DNA of 64,000 nucleotides, taken from contig CAWJKR010000008.1 of the NCBI GenBank assembly GCA_963843505.1, positions 465,922 to 529,921 of the forward strand, given 5' to 3'. This stretch comes from Candidatus Aminicenantes bacterium. GTDB lineage: Bacteria > Acidobacteriota > Aminicenantia > Aminicenantales > Saccharicenantaceae. Positions 1-59,025 of the stretch are shown in pieces. Numbering within the stretch: the stretch's first letter is position 1; the number at the start of each line of letters is the position of its first letter. The position numbers were made by a program, and so were the translations under genes. Below the pieces are notes generated by a model. The model saw nothing but the letters and a program-made list of their open reading frames with translations, did no database searches and had not been told where the DNA came from.

Positions 1-109
1 TCGTCGTCGTCGGCGGCCTGGTCACGTCCACGATCCTGACGCTCTTGGTGCTGCCCGTTCTCTATAGCTGGCTCGGCGGCGGGAAGCGAGCGCCCAGCAA
101 CAGCTAAAG
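1..109 (+). CDS. C-terminal fragment of an RND efflux permease (AcrB/CzcA-like); the 5' part lies outside the window.
   Basis: Frame-1 translation ...VVGGLVTSTILTLLVLPVLYSWLGGGKRAPSNS* ends at TAA 107-109. This is the typical last TM helix and tail of the HAE1/HME RND family. Confidence 0.5.
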
Positions 110-114
110 AAGAT

Positions 115-205
115 GGGGTCAAACCTATACCTTTTTAATTTTCGAGGCTAGCCGTACCGGGGGCTGCTCGAAAATTAAAAAGGTATAGGTTTGACCCCGT
201 CTTAT
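115..205. repeat. Palindromic hairpin element, copy 1: about 30-bp perfect inverted arms (ggggtcaaacctatacctttttaattttcg / cgaaaattaaaaaggtataggtttgacccc) around a 25-nt GC-rich loop, followed by the tail gtcttat.
   Basis: Read directly from the sequence. It lies between the RND stop (109) and the permease start (228). A second copy is at 55063-55143. Confidence 0.7.
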
Positions 206-227
206 CCCTATGTTATAAATCGCCCTC

Positions 228-1679
228 ATGAAGAGCGTCCTGTTCGCCACGAAGAGCCTCGAGCAGCTGACGCAGGAGGCCTCGTCGGAGTCCTCCGGTC
301 TCAAGCGCGTCCTCGGCCCCTGGCACCTCATCTTCCTCGGCGTCGGGGCCATCGTCGGGGCCGGCATCTTCGTCATGACCGGCCACGTCGCCGCCCAGTA
401 CGCCGGGCCCGCCGTCACGCTGTCCATCGTCCTCGCCGGGGTCACGTGCGCCTTCGCCGGGCTCTGCTACGCCGAGTTCGCCTCGCTCATCCCCATCGCC
501 GGCAGCGCCTACACCTACGCCTATTCGACCCTCGGCGAGATCTTCGCCTGGATCATCGGCTGGGACCTCATCCTGGAATACTCGGTCGGCGCGACGACCG
601 TGGCCATCGGCTGGTCCGGCTACGTCGTCAGCTTCCTCAAGGGCGTCGGGATCAATTTCCCGGCCGCCCTGGCCGACGCGCCCTACGCCTTCGATCCCAA
701 GTCCGGCGCGTGGACGCGGACGGGCTCGTTCATCAACCTCCCGGCCCTCCTGATCATCGCCCTCATCACCATCGTCCTCGTCCGGGGCATCCGCGAGTCG
801 GCCTCGGTCAACTCCGTCATCGTCTTCCTGAAGATCAGCATCATCCTCGTCTTTGTCGGCGCGGGCATCTTCTTCATCAAACCGGAGCTGTGGCATCCCT
901 TCATCCCCGCCAACCAGGGGCAATCCGGCTTCTTCGGCTGGAGCGGGATCCTCCGCGGGGCCGGGGTGATGTTCTTCGCCTACCTCGGCTTCGACGCCGT
1001 CTCGACCGCCGCCCAGGAGGCCAAGAACCCCAAGCGGGACATGCCCATCGGCATCCTCGGATCGCTCTTCGCCTGCACGGCCATCTACATCGTCTTCTCC
1101 CTCGTCCTCACGGGCGTCGTCCCCTACAACGAGCTCAACGTCACCGCCCCCGTGGCCGTGGCCATCGACGCCATGCGGCTCTTCTGGCTCTCGCCCCTCA
1201 TCAAGATCGCCGCCATCGTCGGGCTCATGTCGGTCATGATGGTCCAGCTCATGGGCCAGCCGCGGATCTTCTACACCATGGCCAAGGACGGGCTCCTGCC
1301 GCCGGCCGCGGCCAAGATCCACCCCAAGTACGGCACGCCCCACGTCACCACGATGATCACCGGCATTCTCGTCGGCGTCGCCGCCGCGCTCCTGCCCATG
1401 GGCATCGTCGGCGAGCTCGTCAGCATCGGGACGCTCTTCGCCTTCGCCATCGTCTGCGGCGGCGTCCTCGTCCTCCGCTACACCCGGCCCGACATCCCGC
1501 GGCCGTTCCGGACGCCCCTCGTCCCGTTCGTCCCGCTTCTCGGCATCTTTTCCTGCGTCTACCTGATGACCTTCCTGTCCAAGGACACCTGGATCCGCCT
1601 CATCGTCTGGATGGCGATCGGGCTGGTCATCTACTTCACCTACGGCATCCGCAAGAGCAAGCTCAGGAGAAGGCCATGA
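228..1679 (+). CDS. APC-superfamily amino acid permease (cationic amino acid transporter-like).
   Basis: Intact 483-aa ORF with about 12 TM segments. N-terminal [11 protein letters not shown] and LCYAEF...GSAYTY motifs are characteristic of APC/CAT-family permeases. Confidence 0.85.
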
Positions 1680-33769: not shown

Positions 33770-33864
33770 TGGCGGGAAGGTGTGGGAGTCGAACCCACCC
33801 GGGACGTCTATAGCCCCATACCGGATTTGAAGTCCGGAAGGATCACCGGATCCTTCACCCTCCC
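33770..33864 (-). tRNA. selC: tRNA-Sec (selenocysteine tRNA, anticodon UCA), 95 nt including encoded CCA.
   Basis: Minus-strand read: GGGAGGGT-GAAGGATCCGGTGATCCTTC-CGGACTTCAAATCCGG-TATGGGGCTATAGACGTCCC-GGGTGGGTTCGACTCCCAC-ACCTTCCC-G-CCA. It has an 8-bp acceptor stem with one G-U pair, an extended D-stem, anticodon loop CTTCAAA (UCA), a long variable arm, and the T-arm GGTTCGACTCC. Segment for segment it parallels E. coli selC (CCGGTGA / GGACTTCAAATCC / GGTCCCGGG..GGTTCGACTCC). Confidence 0.8.
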
Positions 33865-49082: not shown

Positions 49083-49102
49083 GCTGTCTTGCCCAGCGGA
49101 TA

Positions 49103-49622
49103 CTAAGGTTTGTCCCTCAGGTCCGCCAGGACCTGCTCCAGCTTGTCGAAGGACTGGTTCCATCCTTGCCGGGCGCCCTCCTGATCCGGACCGGGCGCGA
49201 AGCCGGCGTGCTTCAATGTCATCTTGGTCTTGCCGCCGATCTCCTCGAAGGTCACGGTCAGCGAGCAGCTCGCGCGGGAAATCGGGGCTCATGCCGTATT
49301 GGGTCGCCGGCACGATGTTGCCCTTCTCGTCGGCGAAGGAGTCGGTCATGACGATCCGCTCGAAAGGCGTGATCTCGCGGTAGAATCCCGTGCCCCAAAT
49401 GTCCTTGCCCTCGGGCGATCTCATGCAATAGAGGAATTGCCCGCCGACGCGGAGCGATATCCTGGCCACGGGGATCGGATACCCCTTGGGACCCCACCAG
49501 CGCATGACCAGGTCCGGCACGGTCCAAGCCTCCCAGACACGCTCACGGGGAGCGTCGAACTCCCGCTCGATATCCAGAGACGCGCCGAAGGTTTCCAGCG
49601 CTTCGTCCTTGTGCATGACCAT
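49103..49622 (-). CDS. SRPBCC / AHSA1-family (Activator-of-Hsp90-ATPase-like) protein; one frameshift.
   Basis: ...DAPRERVWEAWTVPDLVMRWWGPKGY...GGQFLYCM...GTGFYREITPFERIVMTD.... Repaired C-terminus TVTFEEIGGKTKMTLKHAGFAPGPDQEGARQGWNQSFDKLEQVLADLRDKP*. Confidence 0.7.
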
Positions 49623-49820: not shown

Positions 49821-51759
49821 CTAGGCGGCGGGGCGCTTGGCCGGGACGTGACGGTCCTCGACGCGCAGGGTGAAACCGGTCTTGTCGAAGTACTCCAGGA
49901 TGGCCTGGGCGTACTTGCGGGACAGGTCGAGCCGGTCGCGAAGCTCGGCGATGGTGACGCTGCCGTGGCGCTCGATGAGGCCGGCGACGGCGGCGCGCGC
50001 CGCTTCGATCGTCTCGCGGTGATAGATGACCTTGGGGGCCAGCCGGACGAGCTCGCCGGAGCGGAGGAGTCCGGAAAGGACGGGGTTGAAAACGGAAGGG
50101 TTGAGGCCGAGCTTCGTCCTCACGTCGTCTTCGAGCGGGGCCGAGAAGCGGGCGGCGCGGAAGGCGCCTTCGACCCGGGCGCGGAGCGCGGCCTCGACCG
50201 GGTCGGTTTTCGCCTCGCGGCCGGCGAGCCCGATCTCGGCGTCCTTCCGGACGAGAAGGCCGTCCGCGATGAGCGCGTCGAGGACGAGCTTGAGGGTCGG
50301 CGCGTCGCTCGTCTTGAGGAATTCCGCCCGGAGGTCCGAGTAGGGCATGGCCGCGCGGAACGGGTTCCTCTCGAAATACGCCCGGACCGCGGCCACGAGC
50401 CCGTCGGAGAGGCGCGCAAAGGCCGATCGGTGGAGATAGCGCTCCGGCTTCTCGCCGGGGAGGGCGACGAGGCTGCCGTCGGCGAGGAGGGCCGTGACGG
50501 CCTCGGCGACCTCGGGCTCGCCGCGGCCGAGCTTGCGGGTGATGTCGAGGACGGCCTGGGGCGCGCCGCCGGCCTTGGCGAACATCTGCTCGACGGCGTC
50601 GCGGGACGTGCCCCCGAGCTTGCCCAGGCCTTCGAGGACGCCGCCGCTGAAGCGCTTGTGCTTTTCGGGCGCGGCGTCGAGCACGCGGCCGCCGCCGATC
50701 GTCACGATGGGGGAGAAGGAGCGGATGACGAACCGGTCGCCGGGGAGGGCGACGGCCGGGCGCTCGAGGATGAGCTGGACGGCCGCCGTGGCGCCGGGCG
50801 CGATCGTCGGCGCGCCGATGACGGACAGGCGGGCCATGACCTCGTCCGTGCCGATGTGGAGGCGGACGCGGTCGCGGTGCTTGATCTCGCGGGGGGCGCC
50901 CGGCAGGACGTCGAGGCGGACGTCGAGGCGGGCCGTCGGGGCGAGCGATCCCGTCGGCGGCCGCGACCTGGCCGCGGCGGAGGTCGTCCTTGGCGACGTC
51001 CTGGAGGTTGAGCGCGGTCCGCCGGCCGATCGCCGGACCGCTCCGCTTTCGACTCGTGGACCTGGACGCCGCGGACGCGGGTCTTGAGGCCCTCGGGGTA
51101 GATCTCGATCCGGTCGCCCGCGCGCGACCGCGCCCGGACAGGATGGTCCCGGCGACGACCGTGCCGAAGCCGTGGATGATGAAGACGCGGTCGATGGGCA
51201 TGCGGAAGACGCCGCTGTCGGGGCGCGGGCCCGACGCGGCGGCCGATCTCCTGGAGCGCCGCTTTGAGCGCCGGGACGCCGGCCCCGGTCAGCGCCGAGA
51301 CGGGGATGACGGGCGCGTCGTCGAGGAACGAGCCGCGGACGAAGTGCGCGGACCTCGGCCGTGAGCTCGGCCAGGCGGGCCTCGTCGACGAGGTCGCACT
51401 TCGTCAGGGCGATGATGCCGCGCTTGACGCCGAGGAGCCGGAGGATGTCGAAGTGCTCGCGGGTCTGGACGGCGATGCCCTCGTCGGCGGCGATGACGAA
51501 CAGGGCGGCGTCGATGTTGCGAGGCGCCGGCGACCATGGTCTTGACGAACTTCTCGTGGCCGGGGACGTCGATGAAGACGATCTGCTTCTCGTAGTCCGG
51601 GTCGTCGAGGAAGACGAAGCCGAGCTCGATCGTCATGCCCCGCTCTTTTTCCTCGGGCAGGGTGTCGGGGTCGATGCCGGTCAGGGCCCTGACGAGGGCG
51701 CTCTTGCCGTGGTCGATGTGGCCGGCCGTGCCGACGATGACGTGGTCGAGGTCGGGCAT
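49821..51759 (-). CDS. selB: Selenocysteine-specific elongation factor SelB; 3 or more frameshifts.
   Basis: N-terminus [52 protein letters not shown]...[12 protein letters not shown] (SelB GTPase G1-G3). C-terminal 338 aa ...[43 protein letters not shown]... (tandem winged-helix SECIS-binding domains). Confidence 0.8.
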
Positions 51760-52978
51760 GGGCGCGAAGCGGGGGCGGAGGCGCGGAGGCGGATGCGGGC
51801 CGGGCCCTTGCGCGAGGACGCGGCCGATGACCGCGGCCGCGGGGACGCCCTGCTCGCGGAGGGCGGCGAGGAGGGCGCGGGGCCTTGGACTTGCGGACGG
51901 CGATGAGCAGGCCCGCCCGAGGTCTGGGGGTCGTAGAGGAGCGTCTCGAGGTCCTCGCCGGCGGCCTTGTCGCGCTTGACGAAGGCGGCGGCGTACTCGC
52001 GGTTGCGCTCGACGGCGCCGGAGATCGACGCCCGTCGCGGATGAGGTCGAGGACGCCGGGGAAGACGGGGATGGCGGCGCCGTCGATCTCGACCGTCGAC
52101 GCCGCTCTGGGCGGCCGATCTCGCCGAGGTGGCCGGCCAGGCCGAAGCCGGTGACGTCGGTCGCCGTGCGTGACGCCGGCCGCGGTCATGACCTCGGCGG
52201 CGGCCCGGTTGAGCGCGCCCATGGAGCGCTCGGCGGCGGCCAGGCCGTCGGCGGGCGCCCGGCCGATCTGGCGGGCGAAGCTGAGGATGCCCGTGCCGAT
52301 GGGCTTGGTCAGGATGAGGAGGTCGCCGGGCCGGGCCTTGCTGTTGACGGTCATCCGGCGGGGATCGACGACGCCGGTCACGGCGAAGCCGAACTTGATC
52401 TCGTGGTCCTTGATGCTGTGGCCGCCGAGGAGGGCGACGCCGGCCTCGCGGAGCTTGTCGACGCCGCCCTGGAGCATGCGGTTCATGATCCGCGGGCGAG
52501 AGCGTCTCGATGGGGAAGGCGATGATCGAGAGGGCCGTGAGCGGCTTGCCGCCCATGGCGTAGATGTCGCTGACGGAGTTGGCCGCGGCGATCTCGCCGA
52601 AGGCGTAGGGGTCGTCGACGACGGGCGTGAAGACGTCGACCGATCTGGACGAGGGCCGTGCGGGGCGTGAGCCGGTAGACGCCGGCGTCGTCGCAGGTCT
52701 CGGCGGAGACGAGGACGCGCGGGTCGACGACGCGGGGCAGGCCGGCGAGGGCCCGCTTGAGGTCCTCCTGGCCGATCTTGGAGGCGCAGCCGGCGTTCTC
52801 GACGAGGGGGGTCAGGGCGACGTCCTCGGGGGCGTCCTCGAGCGCGCTCGCCGGCGCAGAGGCAGACGTTCTTCTGCTTGAAGAGGTCGCAGGGGCAGGG
52901 GTCCTTGGGGTTGCAGATGCAGTGGCCGAGCTCGATCGACCGGCCCATGATCCGCTTGCGCTTCTCGAAGTCGATCAT
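51760..52978 (-). CDS. selD: Selenide, water dikinase SelD (Cys-type), apparently preceded in the same reading by a 45-aa Cys-rich N-terminal segment; the 3' boundary is approximate, and 3 or more frameshifts are present.
   Basis: Repaired: ...[104 protein letters not shown]...[48 protein letters not shown].... This parallels E. coli SelD, with GxGC-x2-K having Cys, not Sec. The upstream segment [44 protein letters not shown] starts at an ATG overlapping the selA stop (tcATGA, 52975-52980). Confidence 0.7.
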
Positions 52979-54405
52979 GACCAGGACTGCGGAAGCGCGC
53001 TTCGCGACCGGTCTTCCTCGGGCTGGATCGTCCGGAGATCGAAGAGACGCGTCCTTGTGGATGCGGGCGAAGACGGCTCGGAGCGCCAGGCGGAGCGCCC
53101 GCCATCGGCATCGATGCGGAGGGCGCAGCCGGACGGCCAGAACTCGCGGGGACCGCTCCGACCGGGACCGCCGCTTCGACCTGCGGCTCGCCGTCGAACC
53201 GTACGGCCGCGGCTCGACTCGAGGCAGCCGCTTCCGCAGCGCGCGCTCGAGGCGGCCGGGCGCGCCGCTCGAGGTCGTCGGGCGTGAGGGCGAGCATCCG
53301 GTAGAGGGGATGGCGGTCGCGGGCAGCTCGTCGGGGTCCAGGAAGAGCTTGAGCGTCGCCTCGAGGGCGGCGAGCGTCAGCTTGCCGCAGCGGAAGGCCC
53401 GGGCGAGCGGGTCTTTCTTCTTCCGGATCACGGCCGCGGCCTTGCCGACGATGATGCCGCACTGCGGGCCGCCGATGAGCTTGTCGCCGCTGAAGCAGAC
53501 GACATCGGCGCCGGCCGCGGACGCTCGCCTGGACGAGGGGCTCGGTCGGCCAGGCCGAAGCGGGCGAGATCGACGAGGGCGCCGCTGCCGAGGTCGTCGA
53601 TGACGGGGACGCCGCGGGCGCGGCCGAGGGCGGCCAGCTCCTCGATCGACGGCTCTTCGGCGAAGCCGACGATGCGGTAGTTGCTGTGGTGGACGCGCAG
53701 GATGGCGCCCGGTCGTTCGGTGACGGCGGCCTCGTAGTCGCGGAGGTGGGTCTTGTTCGTCGTGCCGACCTCGCGCAGGACGGCGCCGCTCGTGGCCATG
53801 ACGTCGGGCATGCGGAAGGAGCCGCCGATCTCGACGAGCTGGCCGCGGGAGACGATGACCTCCTTGCCGCGGGCGAGCGTGTTGAGGATGAGGACGGTCG
53901 CGGCGGCGTTGTTGTTGGCGACGGTCGCGGCCTCGGCGCCGGTGAGCTCGCGGAGGAGCGCCTCGACGTGGCGGTCGCGGGAAACGCGCTTGCCCGCTTC
54001 GAGGTCGAGGGCGAGGGTCGAGTAGCCGGAGGCGACGGCGGCCAGGGCGTCGCCGGCGGCGGACGGAGAGGACGGCCCGGCCGAGGCCGGAGTGCATGAT
54101 GACGCCGGTGGCGTTGACGGCCGGGGCGAGCGAGGGGGCGAATTTGCGTTCGAGGCGGCGACGGAGCCGCTCGATGATGGCCGGCGCCGAGATATCGGGC
54201 GGGAACGGGGAGGAGGCCGCCTCCCGCCGGGTCCGGAGGACGCGCCGGCGATCGCCGTCCGGAGCTCGTCGAGAGTCTCCCGGGCCGAGGCGACGACGGC
54301 CTCGCGTCCGAAGCGATCGATGAGCGGGCCGGCCGCGGCCTCGGCGAGAAGCGCGTCGAGGGAGGGGATCTTCCGGTAGGCGTTCGCTTTCGTCGGATCG
54401 TTCAT
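52975..54405 (-). CDS. selA: L-seryl-tRNA(Sec) selenium transferase SelA; several frameshifts.
   Basis: [20 protein letters not shown]...[65 protein letters not shown]...[23 protein letters not shown]...[20 protein letters not shown].... These motifs include the PLP-Lys region GDKL and are collinear with E. coli SelA. Confidence 0.8.
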
Positions 54406-54425
54406 GGGGACCTGACCCGGGCCTG

Positions 54426-55004
54426 CTATTTCTGGAGGGACTTGAACCGGAGCTTGCCGAAGATCTCCGGATGGAGGTCGGCGGCGCCCCCCGCGGCCGC
54501 GACGGGCACGGCGATCTCGAAGGTCAGCTCCTTCGGGGGCAGGCACGATTCGTCGTTGCAGGCCTGGTAGCTCAGGGCGCCCTTGAGTGGGTGCGGCCCG
54601 GACGCGCAGCCGACCTTGGCCTTGACGAGCGCGCCCAGGACGACCTCGCCTTCGTAGACGACGAGCTCGGCTTCCGAATAGGAGAAGCGGGCCCGCCGGC
54701 CCCGAGGATAGAGGATCTCGACGATCTCGAAGTCCGGGTCCTCGTCGAAGACGAGGGCGGTCGGGATCATGAACTCGTCGATGGGGGCGTTGTCGTTGAT
54801 GTGGTAGCCGGCCTGGACCTTGAGGATGAGGGCGGCCTTGAAGGTTTCGCCGGGCTTCACGGCGTCGCGCGAGATGAGGCCCTTGGCCTCGACGACCTGC
54901 TCGACGTCCTGGGCGACGCCGGCGGGAGCGGAGATCATCGCCGCGGCGGTGAAAACGAAGACCGCGGCGAGGATCTGAGACATGCCGGACAGGAGTTTCC
55001 TCAT
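54426..55004 (-). CDS. Lipoprotein/secreted protein with a DsbD N-terminal (alpha)-domain-like fold.
   Basis: Signal [32 protein letters not shown]. ...[20 protein letters not shown]...ILYPRG...[31 protein letters not shown]... (the paired Cys in the YQAC.DE.C context is typical of DsbD-alpha / DsbD_2-like domains). Confidence 0.5.
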
Positions 55005-55062: not shown

Positions 55063-55143
55063 GGGTCAAACCTATACGTTTTTAATTTTCAGGGTCGGCT
55101 TTGACGGCGGAATTAAAAACGTATAGGTTTGACCCCGTCTTAC
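55063..55143. repeat. Palindromic hairpin element, copy 2: arms gggtcaaacctatacgtttttaattttc / gaattaaaaacgtataggtttgaccc around a 20-nt loop, followed by the tail cgtcttac.
   Basis: Read directly. Same element as 115-205. The arm position C/G (copy 1 atacC...Ggtat) is G/C here (atacG...Cgtat), which is a compensatory swap. The stop codon of the minus-strand gene 55082-57006 falls inside this copy. Confidence 0.7.
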
Positions 55144-57002
55144 TTCCGGCGGCCTTGCCGCCGGTCGCGCCCTTGACGCCCTCCTCGAAGGGCTCGGTCA
55201 GGATGGGCACGACCCAGCCTTCGGGGCTCTCCTTGTAGGTTTCGATGTCTTCCCTCACGGCCAGGGGGTACTTCAGCGCGTCGAAGCGCCGGTCGAGGTA
55301 GGCGCCGATCCCCTCCGTCTTCGGATAGGGGAACGTGATCCAGGCGCTGCGGTCGTAATAGACGCTCCCGGCCTTGACCGGCAGCATCCGGGTCTGGTTG
55401 TTCGTGGCGAACGAATAGACGTACCCCCTCGACACGTAGTACCACGGCCCGTTCTGGATGTAGAGGAACGGCTCCTCGAGCGAGGCCAGCCCGCCGTTGA
55501 GGTTCGGCGTGGCCTGGTCCAGGTACAGGGCCGCGAAGCCGATGCCCTTGGCCTCGTCGAAGAAGCTGACCCACGGCGTGTCCGGCCGGAGCACGGCCGC
55601 GTGGTCCGGATGCATCTTGGACGTCGCGAAATCCAGGATCTCCGTCCGCCCGCCCTCCTTGAACGCCGCCTTGGTGAAGACGGCCTTGTTGAACACGACC
55701 TCGGCGTCGCGCAGGGCCATGACGAACGTGTCCTTGCCGACCGTCGTGACCGACTCGACCGTCACCGACCGGCGACCCCGCGTAGAAATGATACCGGATG
55801 CCGATGTCGACGCCCTCGGGCTGCGGCAGCTTCCCCTTGAGATTGAGCGAGTAGAAGACCGGCCCGGCGACCTCCGTCGCCTCCGGGTCCGTCCAGTCGG
55901 AGCTGTGGTACCAGGCGTGGGGCGGCGCGTAGACGTCCGGGTTCCAGTGGATGGCGCCGTTCGTCTCGAGCTTGTGCTCGAGCTTGATCCCCGTCGACTT
56001 CTCGACGATCTCGTAGATGACGCCGCTCGTCTCGTGGAGCACGATCTTATAGAACGCGTTCTCGACCGTCCGGCCGAGTCCCTTGCCCTTCGTCACCGCC
56101 AGGTCGGTTACATAGGCCGGCTTCGGCGCCGCCGGGTTGTCATAGAAGACGATGTAGGTGGCCTTCGCCCCGGCCTCGACGTCGGCCAGGAAAGCGACGC
56201 TGAACGACGTCGTCGGGTGGTAGCGGACGACCCGCTCGCCCGTCGCCGCGTCTTTCTCCTCGACGGCCAGGATCTTCGGGTCGTTCCAGGTGACGACGTC
56301 GTACACCTGGCTGGGGATCTCCTTGTAAACGACGTCCTTTCCGTCCCTCTCCGCCCTGACCACCCGCACCTCGTCCGGCGATCGCAGGTAGCTCGCCAGG
56401 ATCCCGATCGTGGCGTGGACGGGATAGCCCGTCCGGGCGAAGCCGTGCTCCTCCGACACGACGAGCGACATGTAGCTCTTCCAGGCCGGGTCCCAATAGC
56501 CCTTTCCGGCCGGGGCGCGTCCCCGACGCCTCGAGGACCTGGATATCGCCCGACTCTCGGTTCGACGAGCTGGACCTTCATCCTCGTCTCGGCCCCGGGC
56601 CGCCAGACGTGCCGGGCCTTGACCTCGAAGGCGAGCTTCCCGCCCGCCGCCTTGACGCGCGTGCCTGTCGATCTCGCGGCCGCCCTGATAGACGAGGAAG
56701 TCCCGTGACCCGCGCGCCGTCGACCTCGACCCGGTCGACGCTCCAGGCGGCGCTTCTCGAGGCCGGCCGGCAGCGTCCGGCTGCCGCCAGGGCGCACTTG
56801 ACGAAATACCACGGCTCGCCCGCGACCGGGTAGCCGAACTCGGGGCCCGCCGCGTCGGACGGGGCGCCGGCGCTCGGCCGGGCGATCGAGCCGCCGCCGC
56901 CCTCGCCCGCGCCCGAGGGCGCTTTCCCGCACCCGGGCATCAGCCCCAAGCCCGCAACGGCCACCGCGACGCCGGCGAAAAACAGAAACGTCCCCATTTT
57001 TT

Positions 57003-58958: not shown

Positions 58959-59025
58959 CCCGTCCAGGATCCAAAAAGAAGGGACCGGGTCTTCGCATCC
59001 GCGAAAACCAGGTCCCTTCCGATGA

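Follow-up and report, generated by a model that had tools for sequence, protein, structure and literature searches.

A 64-kb stretch of DNA from Candidatus Aminicenantes (the window) contains two long hairpins, copies 1 and 2, which we consider with a probability of about 80% to be a REP/TIR-type non-autonomous repeat of Aminicenantes whose partner is a syntenic Y1 (HUH) transposase of the TIRYT type. The hairpins belong to a dispersed family with co-varying arms. Copies are present in one genome and absent from another at two sites, persist over long periods at others, and the family is associated with a transposase gene at a syntenic locus. Judging from sequence comparison, a TIRYT-type transposase most likely maintains the family. 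By analogy with related enzymes this protein would also mobilize the hairpins, and the same analogy would provide the single-stranded substrate and the position of the cut.

The two hairpins and their family

Copy 1 has arms of 37 nt (110-146 and 167-203) with a single mismatch, which is a G.U pair on the + strand. Pairing is perfect over 115-146/167-198, and the arms enclose a loop of 20 nt (147-166). The left arm consists of the foot AAGATGGGGTCAAACCT followed by the inner stem ATACCTTTTTAATTTTCGAG and is of the C-type; the right arm ends in GGTTTGACCCCGTCTT and carries an outward-facing TTGACC (191-196). In copy 2, the left arm GGGTCAAACCTATACGTTTTTAATT (55063-55087, G-type) and the right arm AATTAAAAACGTATAGGTTTGACCC (55111-55135) form a perfect stem of 25 bp, or 27 bp counting wobbles, around a loop of about 23 nt (55088-55110). 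The outer AAGAn part of its left arm is degenerate, and its outer foot (55136-55142) is CGTCTTA, reading TAAGACG on the - strand. The original prediction gave the stems as 28-30 bp, which is a little long for copy 2. Its description is otherwise accurate: the loops are G+C-rich and 20-25 nt long, the stem top next to them is A+T-rich, and the tail GACCCCGTCTTA(T/C) is common to both copies. The compensatory swap it reported is also real and affects both arms; the 15th base after GGTCAAACCTATAC differs, with atacC...Ggtat in copy 1 and atacG...Cgtat in copy 2. The two loops are unrelated to each other. That of copy 1 is not conserved even in its orthologues L045 and L099, and that of copy 2 is unrelated to the loop of its orthologue L012.

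Folded as RNA, copy 1 reaches -68.6 kcal/mol (z = -13.2) and copy 2 -46.5 kcal/mol (z = -5.8), with none of 200 shuffles equally stable; as DNA, copy 1 folds at -43.4 kcal/mol (z = -14.1). The core 14-mer has four exact matches in the window, in both arms of both copies, and one further match with three mismatches. With up to three mismatches allowed 0.9 matches are expected in the window, and five were reached in none of 100 shuffles. Rfam covariance models at the gathering threshold matched only a tRNA-Sec in the whole window and nothing at the hairpins. An intrinsic terminator was rejected, in agreement with the original prediction: no T-run follows either stem, a terminator scan gave no terminator-like site at either copy, the stem top is A+T-rich and the tail reads GACCCCGTCTTA.

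Further copies are found well beyond the window. An exact 21-mer from the arm occurs at 21 loci in six Candidatus Aminicenantes MAGs and on 83 metagenome contigs, with no match in viral contigs. The pattern used left the C/G-variable position as N and placed a constraint on one arm alone. Estimates of conservation are inflated, all loci having been retrieved by an exact match to an arm. A relaxed search of the fetched loci gave 107 paired (inverted) elements and 24 single arms. Short elements, with lengths of mainly 70-95 nt, make up 104 of the 107 pairs and represent about 50 distinct sites when grouped by flank clusters. A MAG has up to about 8-10 exact-match loci and 10 or more copies, a moderate number in the tens and not the hundreds. 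All classified sites lie between genes. A literature search for the arm sequence, and for Aminicenantes with palindromic repeats, returned nothing relevant.

The foot (Y)AAGAnGGGGTCAAACCT is common to all copies of the family, and GGGTCAAACCT is invariant. Several inner-stem subfamilies occur on this one foot, varying in sequence while keeping complementarity. The subfamily of the window is TATAC[C/G/T]TTTTTAATTTT; others include TTAATTCTTATAAT, TCCATTTTTACAG, TGCTTATCGTCAG and TACTTTTTTT. Loops vary from 0 to about 90 nt, and their sequences are not alignable between copies. Single arms folded as DNA give -0.7 and -0.6 kcal/mol, no better than shuffles, so an arm has no nested palindrome. The foot, AAGAnGGGGTCAAACCT, also has no GTAG (or CGTC) tag. 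Based on the alignment, pair counts and folding, the whole element is an (imperfect) palindrome with conserved ends and a variable spacer.

Some elements depart from this plan. Hybrids of 121-131 nt (L022:3074-3194, L024:1402-1532, L027:2717-2837, L063:11848-11973) have one arm of the window type and another with the same foot and an unrelated, non-complementary inner part (GGGGTCAAACCTACGGCAGGGAGCGGATTC...). The window also holds a lone arm-like match at 49100-49120 (- strand), AGGTTTGTCCC, which deviates from the foot at one position, lacks a partner arm and is probably due to chance.

A second hairpin family is represented in the window at 58978-59019 (AAGAAGGGACCGGGTCTTCGCA...GCGAAAACCAGGTCCCTTC), with a DNA fold of -17.5 kcal/mol (z = -4.6). 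This family, also denoted GGGACCGGGTCTTCGCA, recurs in L002, L004, L011, L013, L014, L021, and L077 and shares its AAGAAGGG start with the first. In three to four cases it is nested in or next to first-family loops (L014, L021, L011, and, beside a lone arm, L002), which fits insertion into exposed single-stranded loops. At one orthologous site, L013 has a second-family hairpin in place of the first-family copy of L016. No transposase partner of the second family was found among the fetched loci. In L011 (4540-4782), a canonical terminator (GGCCCCGGGCGG...CCGCCCGGGGCCTTTTTT) directly precedes the first-family arm, and the loop contains a second-family arm followed by unrelated DNA up to the contig end. 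The content of this loop may be an insertion sequence that landed there.

Co-variation of the arms and history of the sites

Co-variation was assessed in an alignment of 88 non-identical copies, with the structure taken from window copy 1. In the alignment 89.6% of cells are paired, 20 of the 35 pairs have changed on both sides, and none of 500 shuffles reaches the covariation score. Pairing drops to 34-55% when the partner column is shifted by one to three positions. The pair first seen to be swapped between the window copies is CG in 40 copies, GC in 25, UA in nine, AU in three, UG in one and unpaired in 10. It is not a search artefact, because the fetch pattern had an N at this position and constrained one arm only. 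A mismatch or wobble recurs at TTTTTA[A/G]TTTT. The double changes and the covariation score thus bear out the proposal that the hairpin is maintained and is not a chance palindrome. What the compensation means is that the arms are kept complementary, and it is not by itself proof of selection on RNA. The same compensation would be expected from hairpin-templated DNA correction or from a transposase recognizing the folded single strand. The process keeping the arms complementary could be selection for recognition, templated correction in the hairpin, or replacement from other copies.

We compared sites shared between genomes. L012, L045, and L099 are 80-90% identical to the window. With flanks 75-95% identical, window copy 1 shares its site with L045 and L099 and window copy 2 with L012; the other shared sites are L008/L015/L098, L010/L018/L021/L084, L005/L014/L030/L061 and L013/L016. 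The possibility raised earlier that the second window copy is an assembly duplicate is thereby refuted, because the loops and flanks of the two copies differ and each has orthologues in independent assemblies (L045 and L099 for copy 1, L012 for copy 2).

At orthologous sites the arms are nearly unchanged and the loops are not alignable. Sub-A orthologous pairs have five differences in about 1,500 comparisons over arm positions 0-14 and 16-21 versus about 13% divergence in the flanks, though fetching loci by their arms biases these numbers, overstates conservation and makes them unusable as proof of selection. At at least four orthologous sites the copy is of the C-type in one genome and the G-type in another, always in both arms. 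A few copies are half-converted (L023, L054:5362, L009), some orthologous sites have different inner-stem subfamilies at the same place, and decayed copies exist, among them the single arms and L075. One orthologous site was found in varied states (L054:5885-5933, L004:4965-5046, L025:4292-4372, L060:7563-7645, L075:313): a C-type copy, a G-type copy, a 49-nt copy, or one remaining arm. In the 49-nt copy both arms look short of the same two bases (CCTA--CCTTTT).

Two sites are filled in one genome and empty in another. L006 has a 141-nt copy between convergent genes where L099 has only CTC TGA GACGGGA TCA. At the other site, L025:5088, a 40-nt copy lies just after a tRNA gene and is absent in L075, L087, and L054; only a degenerate short remnant is found in L004. 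The original prediction proposed a search for target-site duplications, and neither pair (L006 versus L099; L025 versus L075, L087, and L054) has a direct duplication.

Genes next to the hairpins

Both neighbors could be classified at 63 sites, of which 32 are tandem, 17 convergent and 14 divergent. At least one gene ends at the element in 49 of them. Among 78 element ends adjacent to a gene end, the stop codon is exactly at the outer end (TAAGAnGGGG) in 28, with TAA used in 24 of these, and in 12 the frame continues for another 27 nt to the TAA of TTTTTAA. The AAGA is conserved whatever the neighbor. A T precedes it mainly where a gene ends (35 of 78), and a C where a gene starts (39 of 70). 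As the outer end reads AAGA, an in-frame T just before a copy is enough to give the neighboring gene a TAA stop. Our reading is that the element brings the AA, and that the insertions or later changes giving an immediate in-frame stop are those that were tolerated. A T mainly at gene ends and a C at gene starts also indicate that the TA at many ends is a stop-codon effect and not a target duplication; a TA duplication like that of IS630 was ruled out by these base counts and by the empty sites. For annotation, the repeat accounts for odd gene ends, with some stop codons lying inside the repeat and some ORFs running into an arm.

Both window copies are at tandem gene junctions directly 3' of genes, as originally described. 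The ORF entering from the window start ends with a TAA at 105-107 (+ strand), 2 nt before the copy 1 element. The gene downstream of copy 1 starts with an ATG at 228 and encodes an amino-acid permease (Pfam AA_permease_2). The neighbors of copy 2 are on the - strand: the end of an ORF at 55140-56471 and the start (55004) of a DsbD_N-domain protein. The TTA at 55140-55142 in the tail of copy 2 is the TAA stop of the former ORF, and the corresponding stop in L012 is TAG. The gene upstream of copy 2 (- strand, 55082-56471) is split in two frames, 55770-56471 and then 55082-55765. With a 1-nt difference from L012 near 55160, the second frame runs about 20 codons into the hairpin and stops in the loop-proximal TAA. 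Either sequencing indels or a decaying gene would account for the split; neither part has a Pfam match. Elsewhere in the window is a tRNA-Sec gene (33774-33864, - strand; Rfam 80.8 bits), and reading of the ORF translations only points to SelA-like and SelD-like ORFs near copy 2, at about 51400-54550. If so, the region would carry selenocysteine machinery.

The outward TTGACC of copy 1 (191-196) is followed by 17 nt, TATAAA (214-219), 8 nt and the ATG at 228, an arrangement conserved in L045 and L099. In several element-adjacent genes (window 191-230; L008:3500-3550; L015:4270-4310), only 7-8 nt separate a -10-like box from the start codon. The short distances hint at leaderless transcripts using the outward TTGACC of the element as a -35. 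Promoter donation was not retained as a candidate function: a consensus scan calls no promoter, the -10 of copy 1 lacks the conserved final T, and across copies the spacing from TTGACC to -10-like boxes is irregular. Promoter donation by element ends would be an unproven side effect.

The proposed partner gene and competing explanations

A 1.1-kb insert containing a single ORF of about 320 aa lies between family arms in the orthologous loci L044 and L071 and in L088. In L044 and L071 these arms measure at least 28 nt and have one or two mismatches. The encoded protein matches Pfam Y1_Tnp at 42-43 bits (cut-off 23) and NCBIfam REP_Tyr_transpos, the REP-associated tyrosine transposase, at 71.5 bits (E = 6e-20), below the curated cut-off of 80. 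Over 6,000 homologues of about 320 aa were found, many named RayT by JGI. Those at 67, 55, and 47% identity are at one syntenic locus, with a 724-aa SIS-like protein on one side and a radical-SAM aminomutase-like gene, an acetyltransferase and a Ddl-like ligase on the other. Inverted arms starting AAGACGGGGTCAAA(C/T)C, whose inner parts differ by lineage, flank every one of these. In L106, L107, L109, and L112 the gene is directly bordered by exact inverted repeats of 16-27 nt. The homologue in L112, another locus, has a 27-nt TIR, GGGGTCGCGTCTACACTTTGCACTTTT, starting GGGGTCGCG. A further homologue (L113) has complete 46-nt hairpins on both sides with the foot GGGGTCAAACCT, the same as the family foot. 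The loci compared are genome fragments, and homologues outside the syntenic locus exist. Many public contigs with the transposase (P0003, P0006, P0009, P0019, P0022, and others) are 1.08-1.18 kb, the distance from arm to arm, which suggests that short-read assemblies break at the repeated arms and leave contigs of about 1.1 kb. Neither the gene nor its syntenic neighbors are encoded in the 64-kb window, and we therefore infer the partnership in the genome of the window from its relatives.

The 26 homologues compared share the motifs NHYH, FQ, YIHxNP, and WSS, with H60 Y61 H62, F98 Q99, Y119 H121 N123 P124, and W138 S139 invariant. In profile searches the C-terminal 60 residues match DnaA domain IV structures (E = 1e-3), a hit of the protein to HTH_23 (E = 0.004) stays below its cut-off, and the N-terminal domain weakly matches the solved E. 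coli TnpA-REP (E = 0.45). A single-sequence search against PDB chains gave no informative match. By its motifs and long C-terminal domain, the protein fits an IS200-like Y1 (HUH) transposase of the type called TIRYT, RAYT group 1, or TnpA-Y1 subclass 2.1. The same motifs and domain set it apart from RAYT groups 2 and 3. With a REP-type tyrosine transposase gene associated with the hairpins, the REP-like option among those first offered for them is upheld; a DDE-type MITE and a dedicated structured regulatory RNA, the other two, are unsupported.

The name TIRYT comes from Di Nocera et al. 2013 (PMC3733652), a study that calls the loci TIRtrons, gives the TIR motif as GGGGWSAS and describes 'moderately abundant families of TIRs' whose members often occur as dimers; the acidobacterium Koribacter has one such family. 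The motifs of TnpA-Y1 subclass 2.1 are NH[YF]H, FQ, Y[IV]HLNP, and SS (Table 1 of Quentin et al. 2018, PMC6006769), and that study lists the subclass as without REPs. It equals RAYT group 1 of Bertels et al. 2017 (PMC5581495), and only groups 2 and 3 have been linked to REP/REPIN sequences (RAREFAN preprint, 10.1101/2022.05.22.493013). Like TIRtrons, the Aminicenantes loci encode a RAYT-like Y1 HUH protein of about 320 aa with a putative C-terminal DnaA_C/HTH-like domain (here at E = 1e-3), bracketed by long inverted repeats starting GGGG(T)(C)A; GGGGTCAA and the GGGGTCGC of L112 each agree with GGGGWSAS at seven of eight positions. In both, repeats are scattered in moderate numbers and often form inverted pairs, here 107 pairs against 24 single arms. 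The Aminicenantes 8-mer differs in its last base, an A instead of S. The Aminicenantes repeats are also distinct in forming a defined hairpin unit, in which the foot is fixed, the inner stem co-varies and the loop is free. Their gene is syntenic across 47-67% protein identity, and in one lineage it lies between two whole hairpins, a REPtron-like layout.

In REPINs the ends are conserved and the middle varies, retaining only the hairpin (RAREFAN preprint, 10.1101/2022.05.22.493013). The family resembles the REP/REPIN-RAYT systems (Nunvar 2010; Bertels and Rainey 2011) in its extragenic hairpins with conserved ends and a variable middle that keeps pairing, a partner Y1 transposase gene flanked by repeats, long vertical persistence, and a location mostly beside gene ends. 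It differs in having no GTAG or CGTC tag, conserved ends that are not small palindromes, a copy number in the tens instead of hundreds, a transposase of group 1/subclass 2.1 and not of groups 2 or 3, and, in most lineages, a gene sitting in the 'loop' between two single arms. As single arms are non-palindromic and the GTAG tag is missing, the classical definition of a REP or REPIN applies only in part. With IS200/IS605 the family shares the transposase superfamily (Pfam Y1_Tnp), the lack of a target duplication and an expected single-stranded hairpin substrate. IS200/IS605 elements, however, lack long TIRs, carry unlike subterminal hairpins on one strand at the left and right ends, and have mobile genes in multiple copies, whereas the Aminicenantes ends are symmetric and the gene is in one syntenic locus. 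MITEs such as Correia/NEMIS, RUP, and ERIC are likewise small and intergenic with inverted ends and can fold in transcripts. Their origin is in DDE insertion sequences, their internal sequence is common to the copies, and target duplications are usual; the Aminicenantes family has none of these features. We also considered integron attC sites, uptake-sequence pairs and operators of a dimeric regulator; all seem a misfit with dispersed single copies, low copy number and an inter-arm spacing varying over 0-90 nt. The family matches TIRtrons as described, and its behavior is that of a REPIN population; we regard it as neither a novel type of system nor a new regulator.

Enzymes of the IS200/IS605 and RAYT groups recognize a folded single strand and transfer it without duplication. 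A TIRYT-type partner would work on the Aminicenantes hairpins in the same manner. The element would fold when its DNA is single-stranded, for example on the lagging-strand template, and the transposase would recognize the foot together with the stem, cut beside it, and move or copy the hairpin into other single-stranded DNA, leaving no target duplication. Because recognition would need the folded stem, changes in one arm would be matched in the other while the loop drifts. The proposed partner gene itself lies between two arms of this kind or, in one lineage, between two whole hairpins.

Other explanations have to account for the same features. That the hairpins are classical MITEs, internally deleted DDE insertion sequences (e.g. 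IS630/Tc1-like with a TA target) moved by cut-and-paste through their TIRs, could be argued from the arms acting as long terminal inverted repeats, the many ends reading TA|AGAC...GTCT|TA with a possibly duplicated TA, and the presence/absence polymorphism. We consider it very improbable. The only coding versions among the fetched loci carry a Y1 HUH transposase and not a DDE enzyme, neither filled/empty pair has a direct duplication, the T before AAGA at 35 of 78 gene ends against C at 39 of 70 gene starts makes the TA a stop-codon effect, and copies have no internal sequence in common, unlike MITEs that arose by deletion. Still harder to credit is a chance palindrome or an assembly duplication. 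The window has only two copies, but their z-scores of about -13 and -6 are matched by none of 200 shuffles, many copies occur in independent assemblies, and the window copies differ in loop and flanks and each have orthologues.

A structure selected by the host independently of a transposase, be it a terminator or insulator without a U-tract, a stabilizer of mRNA 3' ends or an RNase III site, is the best of these alternatives and still unlikely. Copies persist at orthologous sites with intact stems, and this long persistence would also fit a host function. At least one gene ends at the element at 49 of 63 sites. Of 78 element ends next to a gene end, 28 have the stop at the foot and 12 have it 27 nt beyond in frame. 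Known REPs can have such host roles (PMC3733652). Against this, 14 of the 63 sites are between divergent gene starts, where no transcript ends, the stem is not followed by a T-run and belongs to no Rfam family, and the same arms flank the transposase gene. The foot of 11-17 nt is fixed across subfamilies while the stem varies, a pattern that argues for recognition of a specific sequence over a requirement for stem stability alone. Neither the fixed foot nor the copies between divergent promoters can be accounted for by a role at 3' ends. An added, exapted role in transcript 3' ends is possible for some copies.

Within the preferred reading of a TIRYT-partnered repeat, we entertain a more specific version only tentatively, as it is rather less likely to be right than wrong. 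The syntenic gene, of a subclass 2.1/group 1 type that the two main surveys record as lacking REP association, may be domesticated and maintain vertically inherited hairpins whose feet donate stop codons, forming an independent REPIN-like symbiont that links TIRtrons and REPtrons. The unit would be a fixed foot, a self-correcting stem and a single-stranded loop serving as a landing pad, with the loop holding nothing (0-4 nt), nested hairpins, or the 1.1-kb transposase gene.

To our knowledge, REP-type repeats and tyrosine transposases have been studied almost only in Proteobacteria, and we know of no agreed DNA partner for the large subclass 2.1/group 1 branch. The Aminicenantes family gives an alignable case from an uncultured lineage, with an obvious partner repeat and a foot of 11-17 nt, likely the part recognized, beside a freely co-varying stem. 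TIRtron and REPtron layouts both occur with the same foot, and the gene is syntenic over deep divergence. The family is a concrete substrate for the biochemistry of this enzyme class and a data set on the persistence of repeat populations.
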